A stretch of 58,602 nt of DNA, filler included, from Sphacelaria rigidula (taxonomy: Eukaryota), in the NCBI GenBank assembly GCA_964200075.2. It is 8 parts of 8 records of this genome, joined end to end, with 100 filler letters (N's around TTAATTAATTAA, not from the genome) between each part and the next. Parts side by side here need not be neighbours in the genome. Positions count along the whole stretch, not along the records: positions 29,354 to 36,591 come from CAXNAA020015819.1; 7 more parts are not named here. One strand, 5' to 3'. Shown here one piece after another: positions 7,240 to 51,365 of the stretch (the first letter of the stretch is position 1; every line of letters begins with the position of its first letter). The position numbers and the translations under genes were made by a program. The notes below the pieces were generated by a model. That model did not search any database, was not told the DNA's origin, and was given only the letters and a program-made list of their open reading frames with translations.

Positions 7240-7339
7240 NNNNNNNNNNNNNNNNNNNNNNNNNNNNNNNNNNNNNNNNNNNNTTAATTAATTAANNNNN
7301 NNNNNNNNNNNNNNNNNNNNNNNNNNNNNNNNNNNNNNN
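7240..7339. other. Artificial contig-joining linker (N-TTAATTAATTAA-N)
   Basis: 100-bp N run with a six-frame stop cassette. Confidence 0.98.
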
Positions 7340-14577: not shown

Positions 14578-14677
14578 NNNNNNNNNNNNNNNNNNNNNNN
14601 NNNNNNNNNNNNNNNNNNNNNTTAATTAATTAANNNNNNNNNNNNNNNNNNNNNNNNNNNNNNNNNNNNNNNNNNNN
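14578..14677. other. Artificial contig-joining linker
   Basis: N44-TTAATTAATTAA-N44. Confidence 0.98.
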
Positions 14678-21915: not shown

Positions 21916-22015
21916 NNNNNNNNNNNNNNNNNNNNNNNNNNNNNNNNNNNNNNNNNNNNTTAATTAATTAANNNNNNNNNNNNNNNNNNNNNNNNNNNNN
22001 NNNNNNNNNNNNNNN
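21916..22015. other. Artificial contig-joining linker
   Basis: N44-TTAATTAATTAA-N44. Confidence 0.98.
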
Positions 22016-29253: not shown

Positions 29254-29353
29254 NNNNNNNNNNNNNNNNNNNNNNNNNNNNNNNNNNNNNNNNNNNNTTA
29301 ATTAATTAANNNNNNNNNNNNNNNNNNNNNNNNNNNNNNNNNNNNNNNNNNNN
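29254..29353. other. Artificial contig-joining linker
   Basis: N44-TTAATTAATTAA-N44. Confidence 0.98.
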
Positions 29354-29434
29354 GGGTGTGCGGACTGCAGTGTCGAGTTGTGGGGGGGTTGGTTTGCCCG
29401 GGGCCTCGGTGCGGAAAAGCCCTATAATGTAATC

Positions 29435-29635
29435 ATCGGTCGTCAAACTGATTCATCATCAGCCAGGTTGGGCGAAGCAGGAGGTTCGAATCTCGACACC
29501 AACGGGGTTTCTTATCACTGGTCCACGTCGTGAGAAGCGGGAGAACTCAAGTCAGCAAAGGAGATGACGACAGTCGATCGTTGGGAGTGCTGATCGAATG
29601 CTCGAAACTATGTTGCAAGGAAGATGAAAGGGATG
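29435..29635 (+). mobile_element. Diverged tRNA-SINE head and body fused tail-to-tail to a LINE fragment
   Basis: B box GGTTCGAATC at 29483; body motifs CGTGAGAAGCGGGAGAAC and GGAGTGCTG...CTCGA.AC.AT..TGCAAGG align to the SINE at 38935. Confidence 0.65.
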
Positions 29636-29957
29636 GGGGGGGGGGGCATACTCATTCGTTGCTTGCCTCAGTCGTTCTACCATTGACCACGCATCCCTTT
29701 CGAGACGGAGCACCGTTCCTACTCCTAATAGAGCCACCTTCAACCTTCCGGCGCTCATCACGCTTCTTCCATACATTGCACGAAAACCTTCTACATATCT
29801 TATCTCCGACCTGTTTCGCCGTCTCTGGCCATCATTCATTTCCTAGTATAGCTATCGTTTTCTCCCTACTGTCGAATGCATCAAACGGTTTCATGCCATC
29901 TTCGTTCACGTCCCGCATTCCTCCCTCTAGCACGTTCCGCTCCCCCTTGTAAAGTTC
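29636..29957 (-). mobile_element. LINE ORF2 C-terminal fragment plus start of the 3' UTR
   Basis: ELYKGERNVLEGGMR...TIAILGNE*WP...RRFSCNVWKKR fits the post-zinc-finger C-terminus of non-LTR ORF2 proteins. Confidence 0.7.
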
Positions 29958-30130
29958 CGCGGGAAGGGGGGGCTACAGGTATGGTCAGAACAAAAAACGC
30001 AATGACTATCATCATCGAGGCAGTGCGTGCATCATGTTCGGAACAGATTCCTGTGTTGTACAGCACGTTTTTTGCTTCGCAGGATCAAGCGCCGTAACTG
30101 CACCACGTATTTCCAGCTACAGCAACATAC

Positions 30131-30323
30131 CCTTCGGAAACCATTTTCGTCGCCGCGTCCAAGTTGTCCAGGTTGACAGAGACGTATGTGTAGCGGCTGT
30201 GCGTCGCTGCATCTCCGGGAGGCCCGCAAACACTAGCGTCAGCGTGTTGTTTCGAAGCGAAAGCCAACGCCTCAAGGGCGTCAAGGGCAGCGGGACATCG
30301 CACGCAACGTGTGGTCCAGAAAT
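30131..30323 (-). CDS. Double-thioredoxin protein, exon with the second Trx active site (DFWTTRCVRC)
   Basis: Phase-1 CAG|AT acceptor and GG|GTATG donor; DFWTTRCVRCPAALDAL...YVSVNLD. Downstream exons are not found in this contig. Confidence 0.88.
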
Positions 30324-30725
30324 CTGTCACAAACGGGGGGGACATTCGATTACGGGGGCGGGCGATTTTGTTGTACTTTGCTCACACATGCTCGATGTAG
30401 CGGGGGAAAATGTCAATGAGCGAGGCTGGAGCGGGGTGAGAGTGGCGTGATCCTCCTGTATGACATGTCGAAACTAACGAAGTGAGAGATGTCACTCAAC
30501 ATGTCACGCCAACGAACCAATAACGGCGACATTTAGACCCGAAAAGCCTGCGGGCACTCGTTCTACTCGTCGAAAAACGATAAGCCAATTTGAGACTGCG
30601 TGCAACACGTGTACACCGGCACCGGTGCTTCCGAAACTGCGAGCACGGAGGCTCCCGTAGAACCCATGTTACTGTAGTGTATGTAGATTTCCAGTGTACG
30701 AATGCGTAGTTTATGAAACACGCAC

Positions 30726-31374
30726 CAAGGACAGCAGGTCCGCCGCCTGTGACGTCGTCCAAGCTCTTCCGCTCACCACCATCCATACACACAACCTCAA
30801 GCGACGGCATTACATCACCATCACCCAGTGATTCCCCTACGGCGGCAGCAGCGGCATCACCGTCTCGGTTCCCTGCGGTGGTACCATCACCCGCTACCAC
30901 CTCCCCCTGCCGTGTTTCTCCGCCACTAGCAGCCGCCGCGCCATCAACCGTCGGTGTCGTCTTCTTGCGGACAAGCTTGCACACGCCGCCCTCGCATTGC
31001 ATCACATTGCCAGTGGGACCCGGGCTACCAGCGGTAACGGCTGAAGCGGCCGGGACTGAAGCAACAGTAGGTTTCTTGCGAACCAGGGTGCACACTCCAC
31101 CTTCGCACTCCTGCCCACCCGATGCAGGGGCGGGGGCAGGATCAGTCGCGGGCTTTTTCCGGACAAGCTTGCACACTCCCCCTTCGCAATCCTGTCCACC
31201 GGAGGTCGGGGCGACGGGGCTGGGAACAGTCGGCGGAGGAGATGCCGGCTTCACATTCGCGACCCCGCTGTCGTTTTCCTTCTCCCCGTCCTCCTGCAGT
31301 AGAACGTCGTCGAGTTGGTTCAGTGACTTGAGCGGCAGGGCCTTGGCGTTGCCGTGACGCAAGACGGTTCCGTT
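30726..31374 (-). CDS. Double-thioredoxin protein, linker exon with three CEGGVCxLVRKK motifs and the start of Trx domain 2
   Basis: CAG|AAC acceptor (phase 0) and G|GTGCG donor (phase 1); open frame NGTVLRHGNAK...MPSLEVVCMDGGERKSLDDVTGGGPAVL. Confidence 0.88.
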
Positions 31375-31787
31375 CTGAGCGTTTGCGGAGCAATAGGATT
31401 AAACAAGCGTAGGGGATCGGAACACCATCAGCAGCTTTTGTTGAGACGCAGCATATACACGAAAACACCAGTGTCACATGTATAGGAAGTGGTTCGCCCT
31501 AGCTACGGCTCGGGGAACATAGAATTGTACTGGCAAGTAGCAACGGTTTGCTGTGACATCGAGAACAGTGGCCACGCGCAATCGATTGGTGAAATCACGA
31601 TTGTCGCGAGCATCTCACAAAAAAATGAGTTCGACGCAGTGTAGGAAGCGTATGACGCCTGCCAGTGCACTACCCTCGTCGCACCCTCAAGGCATACAAA
31701 ATCTAAATCGCGGATTCCGTCTGTGTTTCGTCGTTAGTCCTGAGCTGACAATGCTTTAGTAAAAGCACACACTGGCTCTGAACACAC

Positions 31788-31881
31788 CTGGTCTACGACG
31801 ACGTAGAAGGGCACTGTCTTCATGCCGAGTAACGTTTTGGCGTTCTCCTTCACGTCCTCCTCCAGGTGTGCGTGCGTCAGT
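31788..31881 (-). CDS. Double-thioredoxin protein, exon with the cis-proline loop of Trx domain 1
   Basis: LTHAHLEEDVKENAKTLLGMKTVPFYVVVDQ; phase-2 acceptor and phase-0 donor are compatible with the neighbouring exons. Confidence 0.88.
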
Positions 31882-32459
31882 CTGCGATTTGTAGTACCCA
31901 CACGACAGCATGCGACCGAAGGACATCCGCCCGACAAATACTGAAAGGTTCAGTTCGTCGACCACAGTGCATTTCAAGCCTCGAGTGTACTGTGTTTGTG
32001 GGGGTAGAGTAGCAGCAGGAACGAACGAAGTGAACTGATGTGGGGCAGCGGTAGCAGCACTTCCAGTATAACCCCAACAATGGGCCGAGCTATTCATCAG
32101 TAAAATACCCTACGCCGAACTTCTCTCAACTCCTCAGTTGGATGGAAAAACATGGAACATCACGCAAAATTCCTCGAGAACTTGTCTTTCGTTCCGCATG
32201 CCGGGGTCTCCGGATGGAAACACCTTCGTAGAAGAAGCAGAGTAACTAGCGGACTAGAAAAATGCGTGCAAAATACAGTGGTCACTACGCGACCATGTGT
32301 CAGTGTACGTCACCTAAAATATCAGGGTGAGCACCAGGTACTTGTATACATGTTATGGATCAAGAAAAAAAATATCCAAGATGAGTTCCCAACAACCAAA
32401 ACAATGACATTCCTTCCTGGTGTCTTTCCACACAAGCAAGCAACAATCGCCACCCTCAC

Positions 32460-32622
32460 CGGGTCCATCTACCCTCCGACGCCGCTTTCTCCAGCAGCGC
32501 CTTGGCAGCGTCGGCATCATCAATGTTGACGCTTATGAATCTTACCGAAGGCCGCTGCTCCGCCATCGTGTCAAGGCTGTCGAGAGCCGCCGGGCAATTG
32601 GTGCAGCGGGTCGTCCAGAAGT
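32460..32622 (-). CDS. Double-thioredoxin protein, exon with the first Trx active site (DFWTTRCTNC)
   Basis: CAG|AC acceptor and CG|GTGAG donor; DFWTTRCTNCPAALDSL...FISVNID is TlpA/redoxin-like. The start exon is not identified. Confidence 0.9.
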
Positions 32623-33265
32623 CTGTTATCAAAACCCCCGGGCGCGCGAAAGGAAGAACGAGGCGGAGTATGTATGGAGGGGTCACACTATAGTTAGATC
32701 CATCCCGAACGATGGAACACACGACACATTCCCCCCCAAAACTATTTTTGATATTTTTTCATGCACGATTTCCAGATTTGGAAGTCGCCCGACTTGTTTT
32801 CCAACGGGATAAAACTTCCAAGTCCGATTTTGAAAGAGGACACCCCCAAAAACAACAATGCTGCTGCTTGTTTCGCGAACACAGCCCCCAACCACGGCTG
32901 CTCCTCACTGTAGGTGTGACCTTGCTGTTCTTGAGCATGGCATACTTATCATGATATATACTTTCTCTGTCCCATAAGCAAAGGTCCTTATGGGGGGCAG
33001 ATCATATCTTGCCAATGGAGTTGCCTACGATGCTAAAGTTAACTCTGTTGAAAAGCTATCGATGCGGTGGTGCTCATGAAAAAAATCGACTCGAACTTAC
33101 TCAGAATTGGTATGGGTCAAAAAGTGGGAAACTTGGCGGGTTTTGGGGAACTTTTCCTGTAGATGGGCGATAACGACTTTGGTGTGGAGCACACCAGGAT
33201 ATCGGCGCGGCAGAAGGCAGGAACGTTCGAACGAGTGGTGAAATATGAGGAGGGCCGCTTTTACG

Positions 33266-35048
33266 AAGGCCTGGGACTATCTAGCACCAGTAACCTTTTG
33301 CGAAACGCTTCACGTAACATGTGACGTATTATATACGTTACACGTTACAACTAACGTTACACGTCACAATTGACGCTACACGTCACAATCAACGTCACAT
33401 GTCACATGATTATTCGTTTGTGACGTGTGAATGAACGTCACAACCGTCACACGCTCAACTTGTACCACAATTAGTGTGGGACAAGCGTATGTGATACTCG
33501 CATGATATGATACATGGGTTTAAGAAGAGTGTACATACGTCATCATAATACGCACGCGATGTAAGCGCAAGTTCAGCGCCACGGCAGCATGCACTGCCAC
33601 AACACACCCAATCATAGAACATATAACAAGCGAATATCGGAATCCGAAAGCACGAGTTTCGAATTTCCGAATTTCAAATATCCAACTTCGATAGCACAGA
33701 CGGGTCTCTAAGAAATCGCGCCCATCTTGTCTACATGTGCGGGAGCGACGTGTAACGTAACAATGAGCGCGGCCCAGGATACCGTAACGATGAGCGCAGC
33801 TCAGGGTTCCCCTTCCACGGTAGAGAGAGAGGGTGCTGCAAGAGAGGGTCGCAAAGCAAGCGGGGCTTTGTACCTCCCTAGAAAATATATCTTCTGCATT
33901 CACGCCCTGTTGAGAGAGTAAATAATTATAACAACAAAGAATCGGATTGCTATGTGTCGGGTGCCCTACGGAATGCCAACCGACCACCAGGTATCACCAA
34001 CGTATGATCTGTATGTACTTGCGTTTGTATGTGTACATCATGGCCTGCGCGCATCTTGGTATCTCACTTTCTGATTTTAACACGGGATCTTACAAATTGG
34101 GGATGGATCTTTTATTGGGGATGAGAAACCCGGCGGATTAAAATCTTCCTAATCACACCAAATCTTCGAAATACGGTTCCATTTCTTCACCTACTAATAG
34201 CTATTGACAACTGCTACACGCCATAGAAAGTTGGATTTCGATCACCGAAAGTTTGGGGTCCTAGGTAAAGAACCAATTTTGGGGAATTCTGGGTGTCCGA
34301 ACGGACGCCAAAATGGTTCCGAAATTGGTTTTTCACCTAAGACCCTGACATTTCGGTGATCGAAATCAAAATTTCTGTGGCGTGTAGCAGTTGTCAATAG
34401 CTACCAGTAGGTGAAGAAATGGAACAATATTTCGAAGATTTGGTGTGGATAGGAAGATTTTCATCCGCCGGGTTTCTCATCCCCAATAAAAGATCCATCC
34501 TCAATTTGTAAGGTCGCGTGTTTTATCGTGCATCAAAAACGAACTCATGTATTTCTTTGAAATTGCAACGTGTGAGTCAAGGACGCATGAGCGATACACT
34601 AGCTGAAACGCCTTCTTACATGTCAACATAGCGAGCAGAACGCGCTTCATGCTCGAACAAGGCAGCCACCGTGAACCTCCCGTACCAAGTTGCGGTACAT
34701 GAAACCTTACAACATCTTACGTAGCGTTCATTTGCCCTCAACACGGTCGAAGTGTAATGTTTCATTTTACGTTACACGTCACAGACGTAACGTTTTAGAA
34801 TACGTTACACGTCACATTATTATACGTTTGTGACGTGTAACGTTTCTTGTGAGGTGTAACGTTCCAAAATACGTTACTGTGACGTCACGTAACGTATCAC
34901 TTCTTTATTCGTCACAAGTGTGACGTAACGTAACGTACCCGTACAAAATGTGACGTAGCGTAACGTATAATTTTTCATACGTCACATTTGTGACGTAACG
35001 TGTAACGTGTAACGTAAAGAGCGCTGGAAATTAGGCCTTTTCCAGGCC
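33266..35048. mobile_element. Non-autonomous DNA transposon with dense subterminal ACGTTAC/TGTGACGT repeats
   Basis: Motif clusters at 33310-33450 and 34770-35015; short AGGCCT/GGCCTGG inverted ends. Confidence 0.55.
34079..34522. mobile_element. Foldback element: ~445-bp palindrome with a 2-3 nt loop
   Basis: Arms of ~220 bp (e.g. GGATGGATCTTTTATTGGGGATGAGAAACCCGGCGGAT and its reverse complement at ~34464-34501); centre GTCCG-AA-CGGAC. Confidence 0.92.
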
Positions 35049-35654
35049 GACTGCTTTGTTTTCTACTGTTCATGCATGCAGGGTGGTGCGTGCAATATAC
35101 GTGTAAAATGTACGGGTTCCAACTAAAAAAACACCGGAGATGAAAAAATATATAACGCCCAAGGCGTGGGACACCGTTAAGCGTCTATGTAATCATGAGG
35201 AACTTTACTTATGGGACAGAAGAAGTATATATATTTACATATATCGGGCGCTTGTACTGCTGCCATGATAAAGTGATATAGAACGTGTGATGTAGCAGAT
35301 GGGCGAAAGCTATCTACCCTTTCACCCCTGGACTCCTCGTTGCAAGCTAAACGAACGGGCCTTTTGGGGGGGGGAGGGGGGGGGGGTGTACTCATGGTCA
35401 TCCCTACAAAGCCGGGACGGGGCACCCCGGGTGCTCGCCGGACCAGGCCCACAACAAATCACCAAGCGCGAAGCGCTGTGATGTGTTCGGCGAGTCGCAT
35501 GAAGGGTGACCTTTTCCTCCGGATCACACGTCAGTGCCCTTTCCGCAGTATCTCTCTCTTGGTGCCGAGGGGTTACGGTGTTGCTGTCAGCACCGGGTTC
35601 AGAAAGTGAGTTTGTGCGGGTGTGCGCTACATATTGCGCGGCGATCCCCCAGGA

Positions 35655-36457
35655 CCATATTTTATGGGAGTCACCAATCTCGATTTTTTCGAGCGATTGG
35701 AGAAAAAAACGGGGACCGCATATTATGGACACCGATTTGGTCCGAATCGGGGGCAAAAAAATCGGAGGAAATCGTCCCGAGATCGTGACTCTTCCCGATT
35801 TTTTTGAGGTGACGTACGTGCATTGACGTACAATGGTGAAGTACGAGGTATTTGACATTTTGCAACGGCAGCAAAAAACACTCTCGTGACAGCGTAGGAC
35901 GTGCCTGCCCGCGCCAGCTGCTGAAGCAACTTCGCACGGGGTTTGACAAGTGGATAATAAGTGCTGACGCCGTACGCCTGCGGCAATGGAAAAATTTCAT
36001 GCTGCGCTGCGCTGCGCTGCCATATGTATCATCACTCTAACGAACCACGGTACTCTCCAAGTTGTTGTCGCTGTACTTGAGGGGGTGATGTACGGCACTG
36101 CACTACTGAAAACTTCAGGTGTTTTTTCATCTCGGTACTCATCACCCCCCTCGAGTGGCGGTCGTATGTCCTCTCGCCCTCATGGCTTCTGGTCGCGCAC
36201 TATTTGTTCACTGTTCTCGCAATACCGGCTGTGCCATCATGTACCGCCACACGGCATTATCATGTACTGTACTGATGGAGTGTCCTGCACTGTATAGCTT
36301 AGGGTACCAGGCTACGAACGACACTGTACTCGAAGGATTATTCACCGTCTGCCTGCTCTTCGGCTTCACGCACGGGGACGCAGTACCACACTCATGCAGA
36401 AGATGACCGTCTGCGTACAGAACCGTTTCACAAATCTGTGACACTGTCTGTCTGTAC
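35655..36457 (+). repeat. Dispersed ~800-bp non-coding repeat, copy 1 (partner at 56540-57316)
   Basis: Collinear matches such as GACGTACGTGCATTGACGTACAA, CCAGCTGCTGAAGCAACTT.GCACGGGGTTTGACAAG and TTTCACAAATCTGTGA. Confidence 0.9.
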
Positions 36458-36591
36458 AAGGGCGCACAAAAAAATATTTCTTGGACCCACACCCCTTTTT
36501 TTACATTTGGGACCGATTAGGGGGTGGGGGTGGGGGGGGGGGGGGATCTGCTGTTTCCATACTAAATCCTATAAAACAACTCAAGGACAAG

Positions 36592-36691
36592 NNNNNNNNN
36601 NNNNNNNNNNNNNNNNNNNNNNNNNNNNNNNNNNNTTAATTAATTAANNNNNNNNNNNNNNNNNNNNNNNNNNNNNNNNNNNNNNNNNNNN
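36592..36691. other. Artificial contig-joining linker
   Basis: N44-TTAATTAATTAA-N44. Confidence 0.98.
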
Positions 36692-43928: not shown

Positions 43929-44028
43929 NNNNNNNNNNNNNNNNNNNNNNNNNNNNNNNNNNNNNNNNNNNNTTAATTAATTAANNNNNNNNNNNNNNNN
44001 NNNNNNNNNNNNNNNNNNNNNNNNNNNN
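43929..44028. other. Artificial contig-joining linker
   Basis: N44-TTAATTAATTAA-N44. Confidence 0.98.
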
Positions 44029-51265: not shown

Positions 51266-51365
51266 NNNNNNNNNNNNNNNNNNNNNNNNNNNNNNNNNNN
51301 NNNNNNNNNTTAATTAATTAANNNNNNNNNNNNNNNNNNNNNNNNNNNNNNNNNNNNNNNNNNNN
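51266..51365. other. Artificial contig-joining linker
   Basis: N44-TTAATTAATTAA-N44. Confidence 0.98.

Follow-up and report, generated by a model that had tools for sequence, protein, structure and literature searches.

A candidate ribonucleotide reductase-directed thioredoxin family in brown algae and related protists, seen from a locus of Sphacelaria rigidula

Background

In ribonucleotide reductase (RNR), the active-site disulfide of subunit R1 is re-reduced by a cysteine pair on the flexible C-terminus of R1 itself, and this pair is in turn recharged by thioredoxin (Trx) or glutaredoxin (Grx); Trx cannot reach the active site directly (PMC4078304). Among class I R1 tails, most carry the pair as CXXC and a minority, including that of E. 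coli, as CXXXXC (CX4C) (PMC9669993, PMC9531940). In class Ia RNR the other subunit, R2, attaches to R1 through its C-terminal peptide; the heptapeptide FTLDADF from this end binds two sites conserved on eukaryotic R1 and inhibits mammalian RNR with a half-maximal inhibitory concentration (IC50) of ~20 µM (PMC9221315). In Bacillus subtilis RNR, one half of the enzyme serves catalysis and the other half re-reduction, and according to the same 2025 cryo-electron microscopy work eukaryotes likely use a mechanism other than docking of TrxA (PMC11903788). A redoxin may also be tied to R2: fusions of Grx to NrdB reduce RNR efficiently (PMC6187632). Here we analyse a window of 58,602 nucleotides from Sphacelaria rigidula (assembly GCA_964200075.2, below G000), and in it a gene on contig C15819 that encodes two Trx domains joined by a linker with three CX4C motifs. 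We call these motifs arms and the gene the Trx-arm gene.

Results

The Trx-arm gene

On the whole, the analysis places the Trx-arm gene in an unnamed Trx family of protists, whose conserved core is a Trx domain with a C-terminal tail like that of R2. As the arms are optional to this core, the partner is expected outside the protein, in R1 of RNR. The reading that we favour, and hold to be fairly probable from sequence comparison, is a cytosolic RNR-targeted redoxin that would dock in the R2-tail cleft of R1 and re-reduce R1, the arms being additional shuttles that are specific to a lineage. The family is probably a dedicated, so far undescribed helper or regulator of RNR in algae and related protists. 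The preliminary description of this DNA had spoken of a self-contained protein, a view that the optional arms and the docking tail do not bear out. The features of the locus are as follows.

29354..36591, no strand: contig G000:C15819 (CAXNAA020015819.1), which holds the Trx-arm gene; bounded by N-spacers
32460..32622, minus strand: exon with the first half of Trx domain 1 (D-FWTTRCTNCP ... EGRWT); from guessed-RNA contigs and translation
32594..32617, minus strand: Trx1 active site WTTRCTNC (CxxC); both cysteines invariant in the alignments
31788..31881, minus strand: exon with the second half of Trx1, including the VPFYVV segment; its proline invariant in 51 family members
30726..31374, minus strand: exon with the end of Trx1, the G/A/V/P-rich disordered linker with three arms, and the start of Trx2
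31153..31188, minus strand: arm 1, CEGGVCKLVRKK, an R1-tail-like CX4C; from translation
31072..31107, minus strand: arm 2, CEGGVCTLVRKK; from translation
30961..30996, minus strand: arm 3, CEGGVCKLVRKK; from translation
30131..30323, minus strand: exon with the first half of Trx domain 2; from guessed-RNA contigs and translation
30295..30318, minus strand: Trx2 active site WTTRCVRC (CxxC); from translation

Joined, the four exons give 1099 nt and a stop-free frame of 365 codons. Acceptors are AG and donors GT at every exon, and the joined frame carries three CEGGVC[KT]LVRKK between WTTRCTNC and WTTRCVRC. The exon joins are seen in X1-X3, three runs of one study whose RNA type is guessed (no run is recorded as RNA) and which serve here for exon joins only. 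In each of them one contig is split over 30130-30323, 30726-31374 and 32460-32623 with 0 differing letters, and the latter two pieces are separated by 94 unlisted letters, as many as the 31788-31881 exon has, with which the bin depth agrees. Run X5, of unrecorded type, gives a single continuous contig spanning 29906-33005. An artefact of the gene model is ruled out by the intron-skipping contigs of X1-X3. The Trx-(CEGGVC)3-Trx frame proposed before is thereby upheld, as is the splicing-in of its linker exon. As a gene, the four exons are real and incomplete: the transcript contigs extend ~305 nt further 5' and 581-726 nt further 3', unplaced on C15819, so that both gene ends are missing, and with the 3' exon or exons off the contig only the first half of Trx2 is present and the C-terminus is absent here. 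Searches of G000 with P0003, with the C-terminal stretch of P0002 and with the tail pattern do not recover the missing 5' and 3' exons. The first exon is 69-77% identical to brown-algal proteins, and all 12 matches with a named organism are brown algae. A paralog search of G000 with P0066 gives two matches inside the Trx-arm gene and one at E 0.7, hence no clear paralog.

An R2-like tail across the family

The two complete orthologs of the window gene, P0002 and P0003, end FTMDDDF and FTMDEDF respectively, and the R2 genes of this genome end EDRRNFRLDADF, EFTLEADF and LFTVDADF (7-mers FRLDADF, FTLEADF and FTVDADF). Because the last exon of the window gene is off the contig, its tail is deduced from these two orthologs. 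A profile built from the Trx domain alone returns, in a deep search, 457 matches at E <=0.001, of which the best 150 are analysed throughout. Among them, 106 end [DEN]F, and many of the remaining 44 are visibly cut gene models. The R2-like 7-mer is present in 62 (45 by the strict form) and a form longer by one residue in 27, together 89 of 150, with a tail consensus of [RN]-[VA]-F-x-L-D-E-D-F. In a scoring of likeness to four R2 tails, 69 of the 150 termini lie above the 99.9th percentile of internal 7-mers, compared with 0 of 42 control termini. F(-7), D(-4), D(-2) and F(-1) are retained across clusters that are <50% identical, with the linker before them free to vary.

The same is seen in metagenomes, where 55 loci were chosen by the Trx active-site pattern and not by the tail. 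Within 900 nt, 49 of the 55 show an acidic-Phe-stop tail, in 27 distinct versions, as do 14 of 550 control windows; three of the six loci without it have <=207 nt of contig left. Across the genome of S. rigidula, the tail pattern matches 7 times against 2 for the control, and four of the seven are R2-type ends.

Some further tails were noticed. A plausible terminal exon with a good acceptor, at L036:618-730 minus (G000:C4111, about 2617-2730), ends GYFTLDEDF-stop; it is not R2, no Trx exon is found within 9 kb upstream, and it may be part of another protein with an R2-like tail, or chance. A short frame ending FAVDDDF-stop lies at L032:1480-1524 (G000:C8330). In the diatom-containing tree group (P0015-P0135) a longer form of the tail, I-D-D-[LM]-D-F, is frequent, and it agrees with the tripeptide consensus of cytosolic iron-sulfur protein assembly (CIA); a change of partner in this group is possible. 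The 8-mer form presumably resembles the end of yeast Sml1, a likeness for which the literature search gave no support.

Arms resembling R1 tails

Eight brown-algal orthologs with the linker carry 2, 2, 4, 3, 3, 3, 3 and 3 arms, and both arm cysteines are kept in all eight although the linkers diverge, as the preliminary description would lead one to expect. The arm consensus is x-C-x-G-[GD]-V-C-[PK]-L. The likeness to RNR shuttle tails proposed there is also supported: CEGGVCKL in the arms agrees with CESGACKI at the end of E. coli NrdA. Closer at hand, one algal R1 type ends C-x-[GD]-[DE]-V-C-[LI]-S-C, for example CDGDVCLSCQG in Tribonema P0205, and the arm variants CDGDVCRL and CVGDVCKL agree with this CX4CX2C tail, which is found in 6 of 19 complete R1 tails among the R1 matches. 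In the 244-Mb genome, the pattern C[DE]G[GDE]VC[KNT] has 5 matches against 1 for the reversed control; three of the five are the arms of the Trx-arm gene and the other two look non-coding. A search of the PDB with the arm region gives low-complexity chance matches only.

In the family, arms are present in 10 of the best 150 matches (11 by regular expression, one being dropped as a doubtful N-terminal stretch). All bearers belong to one weakly supported tree group (support 86), which holds brown-algal, xanthophyte, Phaeothamnion and Nannochloropsis sequences. In P0119 the arm leads directly into the tail, while in P0132 it stands at the C-terminus in place of the tail.

As for the R1 genes of this genome, the two with long introns, L025 and L026 (G000:C15376, C723), differ in their tails and end EIVGEVCISCQG and EAGECLTCSA. 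The relatives of one of them carry the CX4CX2C tail, but the brown-algal sequences available lack its first cysteine (relatives compared: P0188, P0191, P0194, P0199, P0205 and P0207). More R1 and R2 genes, whose exons lie close together, are found on G000:C958, C9505 and C3117, the R2 ends of C9505 and C3117 being near-identical; these genes may come from another eukaryote in the assembly.

Trx domains and fold

The TlpA-like nature of the Trx domains, as read earlier from the sequence, is substantiated by matches to Pfam Thioredoxin_8, AhpC-TSA and Redoxin above cut-off in the orthologs, and by Foldseek matches to DsbF, DsbE and ResA at E ~2e-5 to 1e-4. For eight proteins, the curated hidden Markov models (HMMs) of TlpA, ResA, DsbE and TrxA score at best <=29 bits, with cut-offs of >=97. 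Residues C41, C44 and P110 are invariant across 51 aligned family rows. In the window gene, Trx1 has the CxxC with a facing proline and Trx2 the CxxC only; we infer that the VPFYVV segment is the cis-proline position of the Trx fold. The one-domain relative P0158 is modelled with a confident Trx domain (predicted local distance difference test, pLDDT, mostly >90 over residues 1-140). The AlphaFold model of full-length P0003 is poor (mean pLDDT 48) and is used for domain layout only, in which, at low confidence, two Trx domains, a disordered linker and hairpin arms are seen. A complex prediction of Tribonema R1 (P0205, 90-775) with P0158, made without alignments or folded controls, scores 0.11 against a mark of 0.34 and counts neither for nor against an interaction. 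Over 132 proteins, the median distance from the initial Met to the active site is 36 aa, a stretch in which an export signal would hardly fit, and the family members would accordingly be cytosolic.

A possible link to Trx::R2 fusions

An Atlas structure search with P0158 returns, as row 2 of 10, a 52-member eukaryotic cluster of 482 aa, in which 100% of members have an R2 domain and 63% and 60% have AhpC-TSA and Trx. Its score is 938, against 660-842 for the generic TlpA rows. In addition, of 25,673 windows compared with the start of R2, the one that matches best is EEYLLAENPVR, which follows the linker in P0081. P0081, P0088 and P0098 form a tail-less group (support 99) and may be cut gene models of Trx::R2 fusions. 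The family may have its origin in a Trx::R2 fusion of which the tail survived and the di-iron core did not. The R2 profile finds no R2 piece in 187 family proteins, PF00268 (R2 di-iron) is absent from the orthologs and from 40 longer or tail-less matches, and the first exon of this genome's R2 has a long extension but no Trx. An intronless R2 with an N-terminal glutaredoxin-like domain is seen at L028:1571-2797 minus (G000:C4), close to an intronless R1, on a gene-dense contig of 56 kb that looks viral. Grx-like::R2 fusions also occur in 9 of 21 R2 loci of IMG/VR.

Distribution of the family

At E <=1e-10 the family comprises 152 clusters. Organism names are available for 9 of 30 looked-up representatives, all of them stramenopiles, and the named members include xanthophytes, Phaeothamnion, Chrysoparadoxa, Nannochloropsis, Fibrocapsa, diatoms and Achlya. 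The top Atlas cluster of the structure search is eukaryotic, with Haptophyta the commonest, on 4 records. No family member is found in IMG/VR, nor beside 21 viral R2 genes, and the one match in GTDB is an ordinary bacterial TlpA. The family tree is a quick version, in which 70 of 132 inner branches are unresolved, and therefore no order of events is claimed. Layouts vary (P0024, P0053 and others): an Achlya protein has several Trx repeats and one tail, in another layout a classical Trx is fused ahead of the family domain, and a small group (P0103, P0107, P0123 and P0147) has FWN[ETA]RC and no tail. In the open full text of PubMed Central and bioRxiv, no description of the family, its tail or the fusion is found, and the papers matching CEGGVC are unrelated by title.

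Other features of the window

The window consists of eight unrelated contigs of about 7.2 kb, and neighbours across the spacers are unlinked. N-spacers around a 12-base insert lie at 7240-7339, 14578-14677, 21916-22015, 29254-29353, 36592-36691, 43929-44028 and 51266-51365. High-copy repeats, with depth up to million-fold, flank the Trx-arm gene on both sides, at 29596-30079 and 33952-36591.

Discussion

For an RNR-targeted redoxin, the step of which we are most confident is that the tail would bind the R2-tail cleft of R1. Tethered in this way, the CxxC of the Trx domain would re-reduce the C-terminal cysteine pair of R1. This is the reaction of Trx, Grx and NrdH, but the protein would bring its own address with it. 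Least certain is the step confined to one ochrophyte group, in which the arms would serve as spare dithiol carriers that take electrons from the Trx domains or from ordinary redoxins and hand them to the tail of R1 or to its buried active-site disulfide; electrons might alternatively flow from arm to Trx, as in FrnE. A stronger form, which we consider tentative and somewhat unlikely, makes the protein a third component of eukaryotic class Ia RNR, accessory to the two subunits and imitating the tails of both. It would dock in the R2 cleft while R2 is away, send Trx electrons via the arms into the active-site disulfide and so bypass the tail of R1, and its origin would be a Trx::R2 fusion that lost the radical core. 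Arms reducing the R1 active site in trans would be categorically new, if true.

A number of observations weigh against an RNR-targeted redoxin. The arms are missing from 140 of the best 150 family matches, and the R1s of this genome retain their own CxxC tail, so that the arms are not needed as a replacement; CX4C tails are moreover known outside RNR, in FrnE (PMC8945050). The tail motif was recognised only after the sequences were seen, the window gene's own tail is not found in G000, and 28 of the best 150 matches end in the CIA tripeptide consensus [LIM]-[DES]-[WF]. No RNR gene occurs within the 55 metagenome loci (342 kb), which is a weak indication for eukaryotes. On the side of the fusion, the aligned part of the 482-aa cluster is marked 'name no family' in the Atlas, with a template-modelling score (TM) by query of 0.49, and the R2 profile did not detect P0081, so that the link through P0081 rests on 11 residues. 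Finally, beta tails occupy both clefts in B. subtilis RNR (PMC11903788) and the free R2 peptide inhibits, and therefore a redoxin bearing such a tail must compete with R2.

This competition leaves room for a role as inhibitor or in timing, which we consider unlikely. As a redox-controlled inhibitor or decoy, the protein would fill the R2 cleft of R1 with its tail and block the active complex, the Trx domains and arms sensing redox state or the arms plugging the active site. Filled clefts in the bacterial enzyme (PMC11903788) and inhibition of mammalian RNR by the isolated heptapeptide at ~20 µM (PMC9221315) agree with this, whereas both catalytic cysteines and the proline are invariant in the family, and the probable R2 fusion suits a helper better, as with Grx::NrdB. 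The 8-mer tail form, with its presumed likeness to Sml1, would also fit an inhibitor. Relic status for the tail is the least credible of the explanations and in our view extremely improbable: the tail would be left from an old Trx::R2 fusion without a present role, and the arms would be linker repeats of no special function. The Trx::R2 cluster does offer a source for such a tail, and some members (for example P0103, P0107, P0123 and P0147) lack it; but the four constant tail residues (positions -7, -4, -2 and -1) would hardly be kept between clusters of low identity behind a freely varying linker, nor the arm cysteines while the linkers diverge.

Two other explanations place the function away from RNR. 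The first, which appears quite unlikely to us, is that the protein reduces disulfides in general: the arms would recharge the Trx sites in an internal relay, and the acidic-Phe tail would bind a partner other than R1. This has a precedent in FrnE, whose CxxC is regenerated by its C-terminal CX4C (PMC8945050), and it accords with arms and Trx sharing one chain and with the lack of RNR genes near the 55 metagenome loci; it leaves unexplained why tails throughout the family agree with those of R2 at seven positions, as well as the Trx::R2 cluster and the likeness of arms to algal R1 tails. The relay suggested by the preliminary description shares this position: FrnE is a precedent and may describe the direction of flow between arm and Trx, but the R2-like tail is not accounted for. 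Its other suggestion, a metal or Fe-S binding array, is favoured by no result, with 1-4 arms per protein, each of which is predicted to form a hairpin of its own within a disordered linker. In a related proposal, which we regard as very unlikely, the protein would be a CIA-targeted Fe-S or metal protein with the tail as targeting tripeptide and the arms binding clusters or metal. The 28 CIA-type ends, mostly of the diatom-containing group, and six additional cysteines in the linker speak for it. Against it, the Pri1 signal, which also ends in Phe, required an aliphatic residue at the third-last position (10.64898/2026.04.06.716496), where the orthologs of the window gene, ending D/E-D-F, have none; the LDF/MDF group carries no arms in the tree, and the number of arms varies from 1 to 4.

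If the RNR-targeted redoxin is correct, it offers a concrete candidate answer to how eukaryotic RNR is re-reduced and how access of the reductant is timed against R2 binding, an answer that would cover stramenopiles (brown algae, diatoms and oomycetes) and probably haptophytes. It would represent a new mode of RNR activation or control, and it supplies a hypothesis of function for a widespread unnamed protist Trx family.

Comparison with known systems

Among the known RNR reductants, Trx, Grx and NrdH share with the algal family the Trx fold, the CxxC and, as proposed here, the target, the C-terminal pair of R1 (PMC4078304, PMC11903788); an R2-like tail is not reported on those reductants in the available parts of these sources. 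B. subtilis TrxA docks via an aromatic patch that is predicted not to be shared by eukaryotic R1 (PMC11903788). In the R2 C-terminal peptide P7 (FTLDADF), the same F-x-x-D-x-D-F end fits the R1 cleft (PMC9221315); unlike R2 and the small disordered inhibitors of the Sml1 type, the algal protein joins this tail to Trx domains that look catalytic. The Grx::NrdB fusions of Facklamia ignava, Francisella and viruses likewise tie a redoxin to R2 sequence (PMC6187632), whereas the algal redoxin is TlpA-like, has a docking tail without the di-iron core and R1-like CX4C arms, and its role in RNR is a predicted one.

In fold and sequence, the nearest solved structures are those of TlpA, ResA and DsbE (Mtb DsbE 1LU4, DsbF 3IOS and TlpA 1JFU), with W-x-x-x-C-x-x-C in common; the algal family differs from them by its short N-terminus, eukaryotic hosts, R2-like tail and arms, and lies under their curated cut-offs. 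FrnE of Deinococcus (DR_0659), a cytoplasmic reductase, combines a Trx-fold CxxC and a flexible CX4C on one chain (PMC8945050). A DsbA match is not found for the orthologs in Pfam and curated HMM scans, and in contrast to FrnE, which is of DsbA type with a single terminal CX4C and no docking tail, the algal protein is of TlpA type, with 2-4 internal arms and an R2-like tail.

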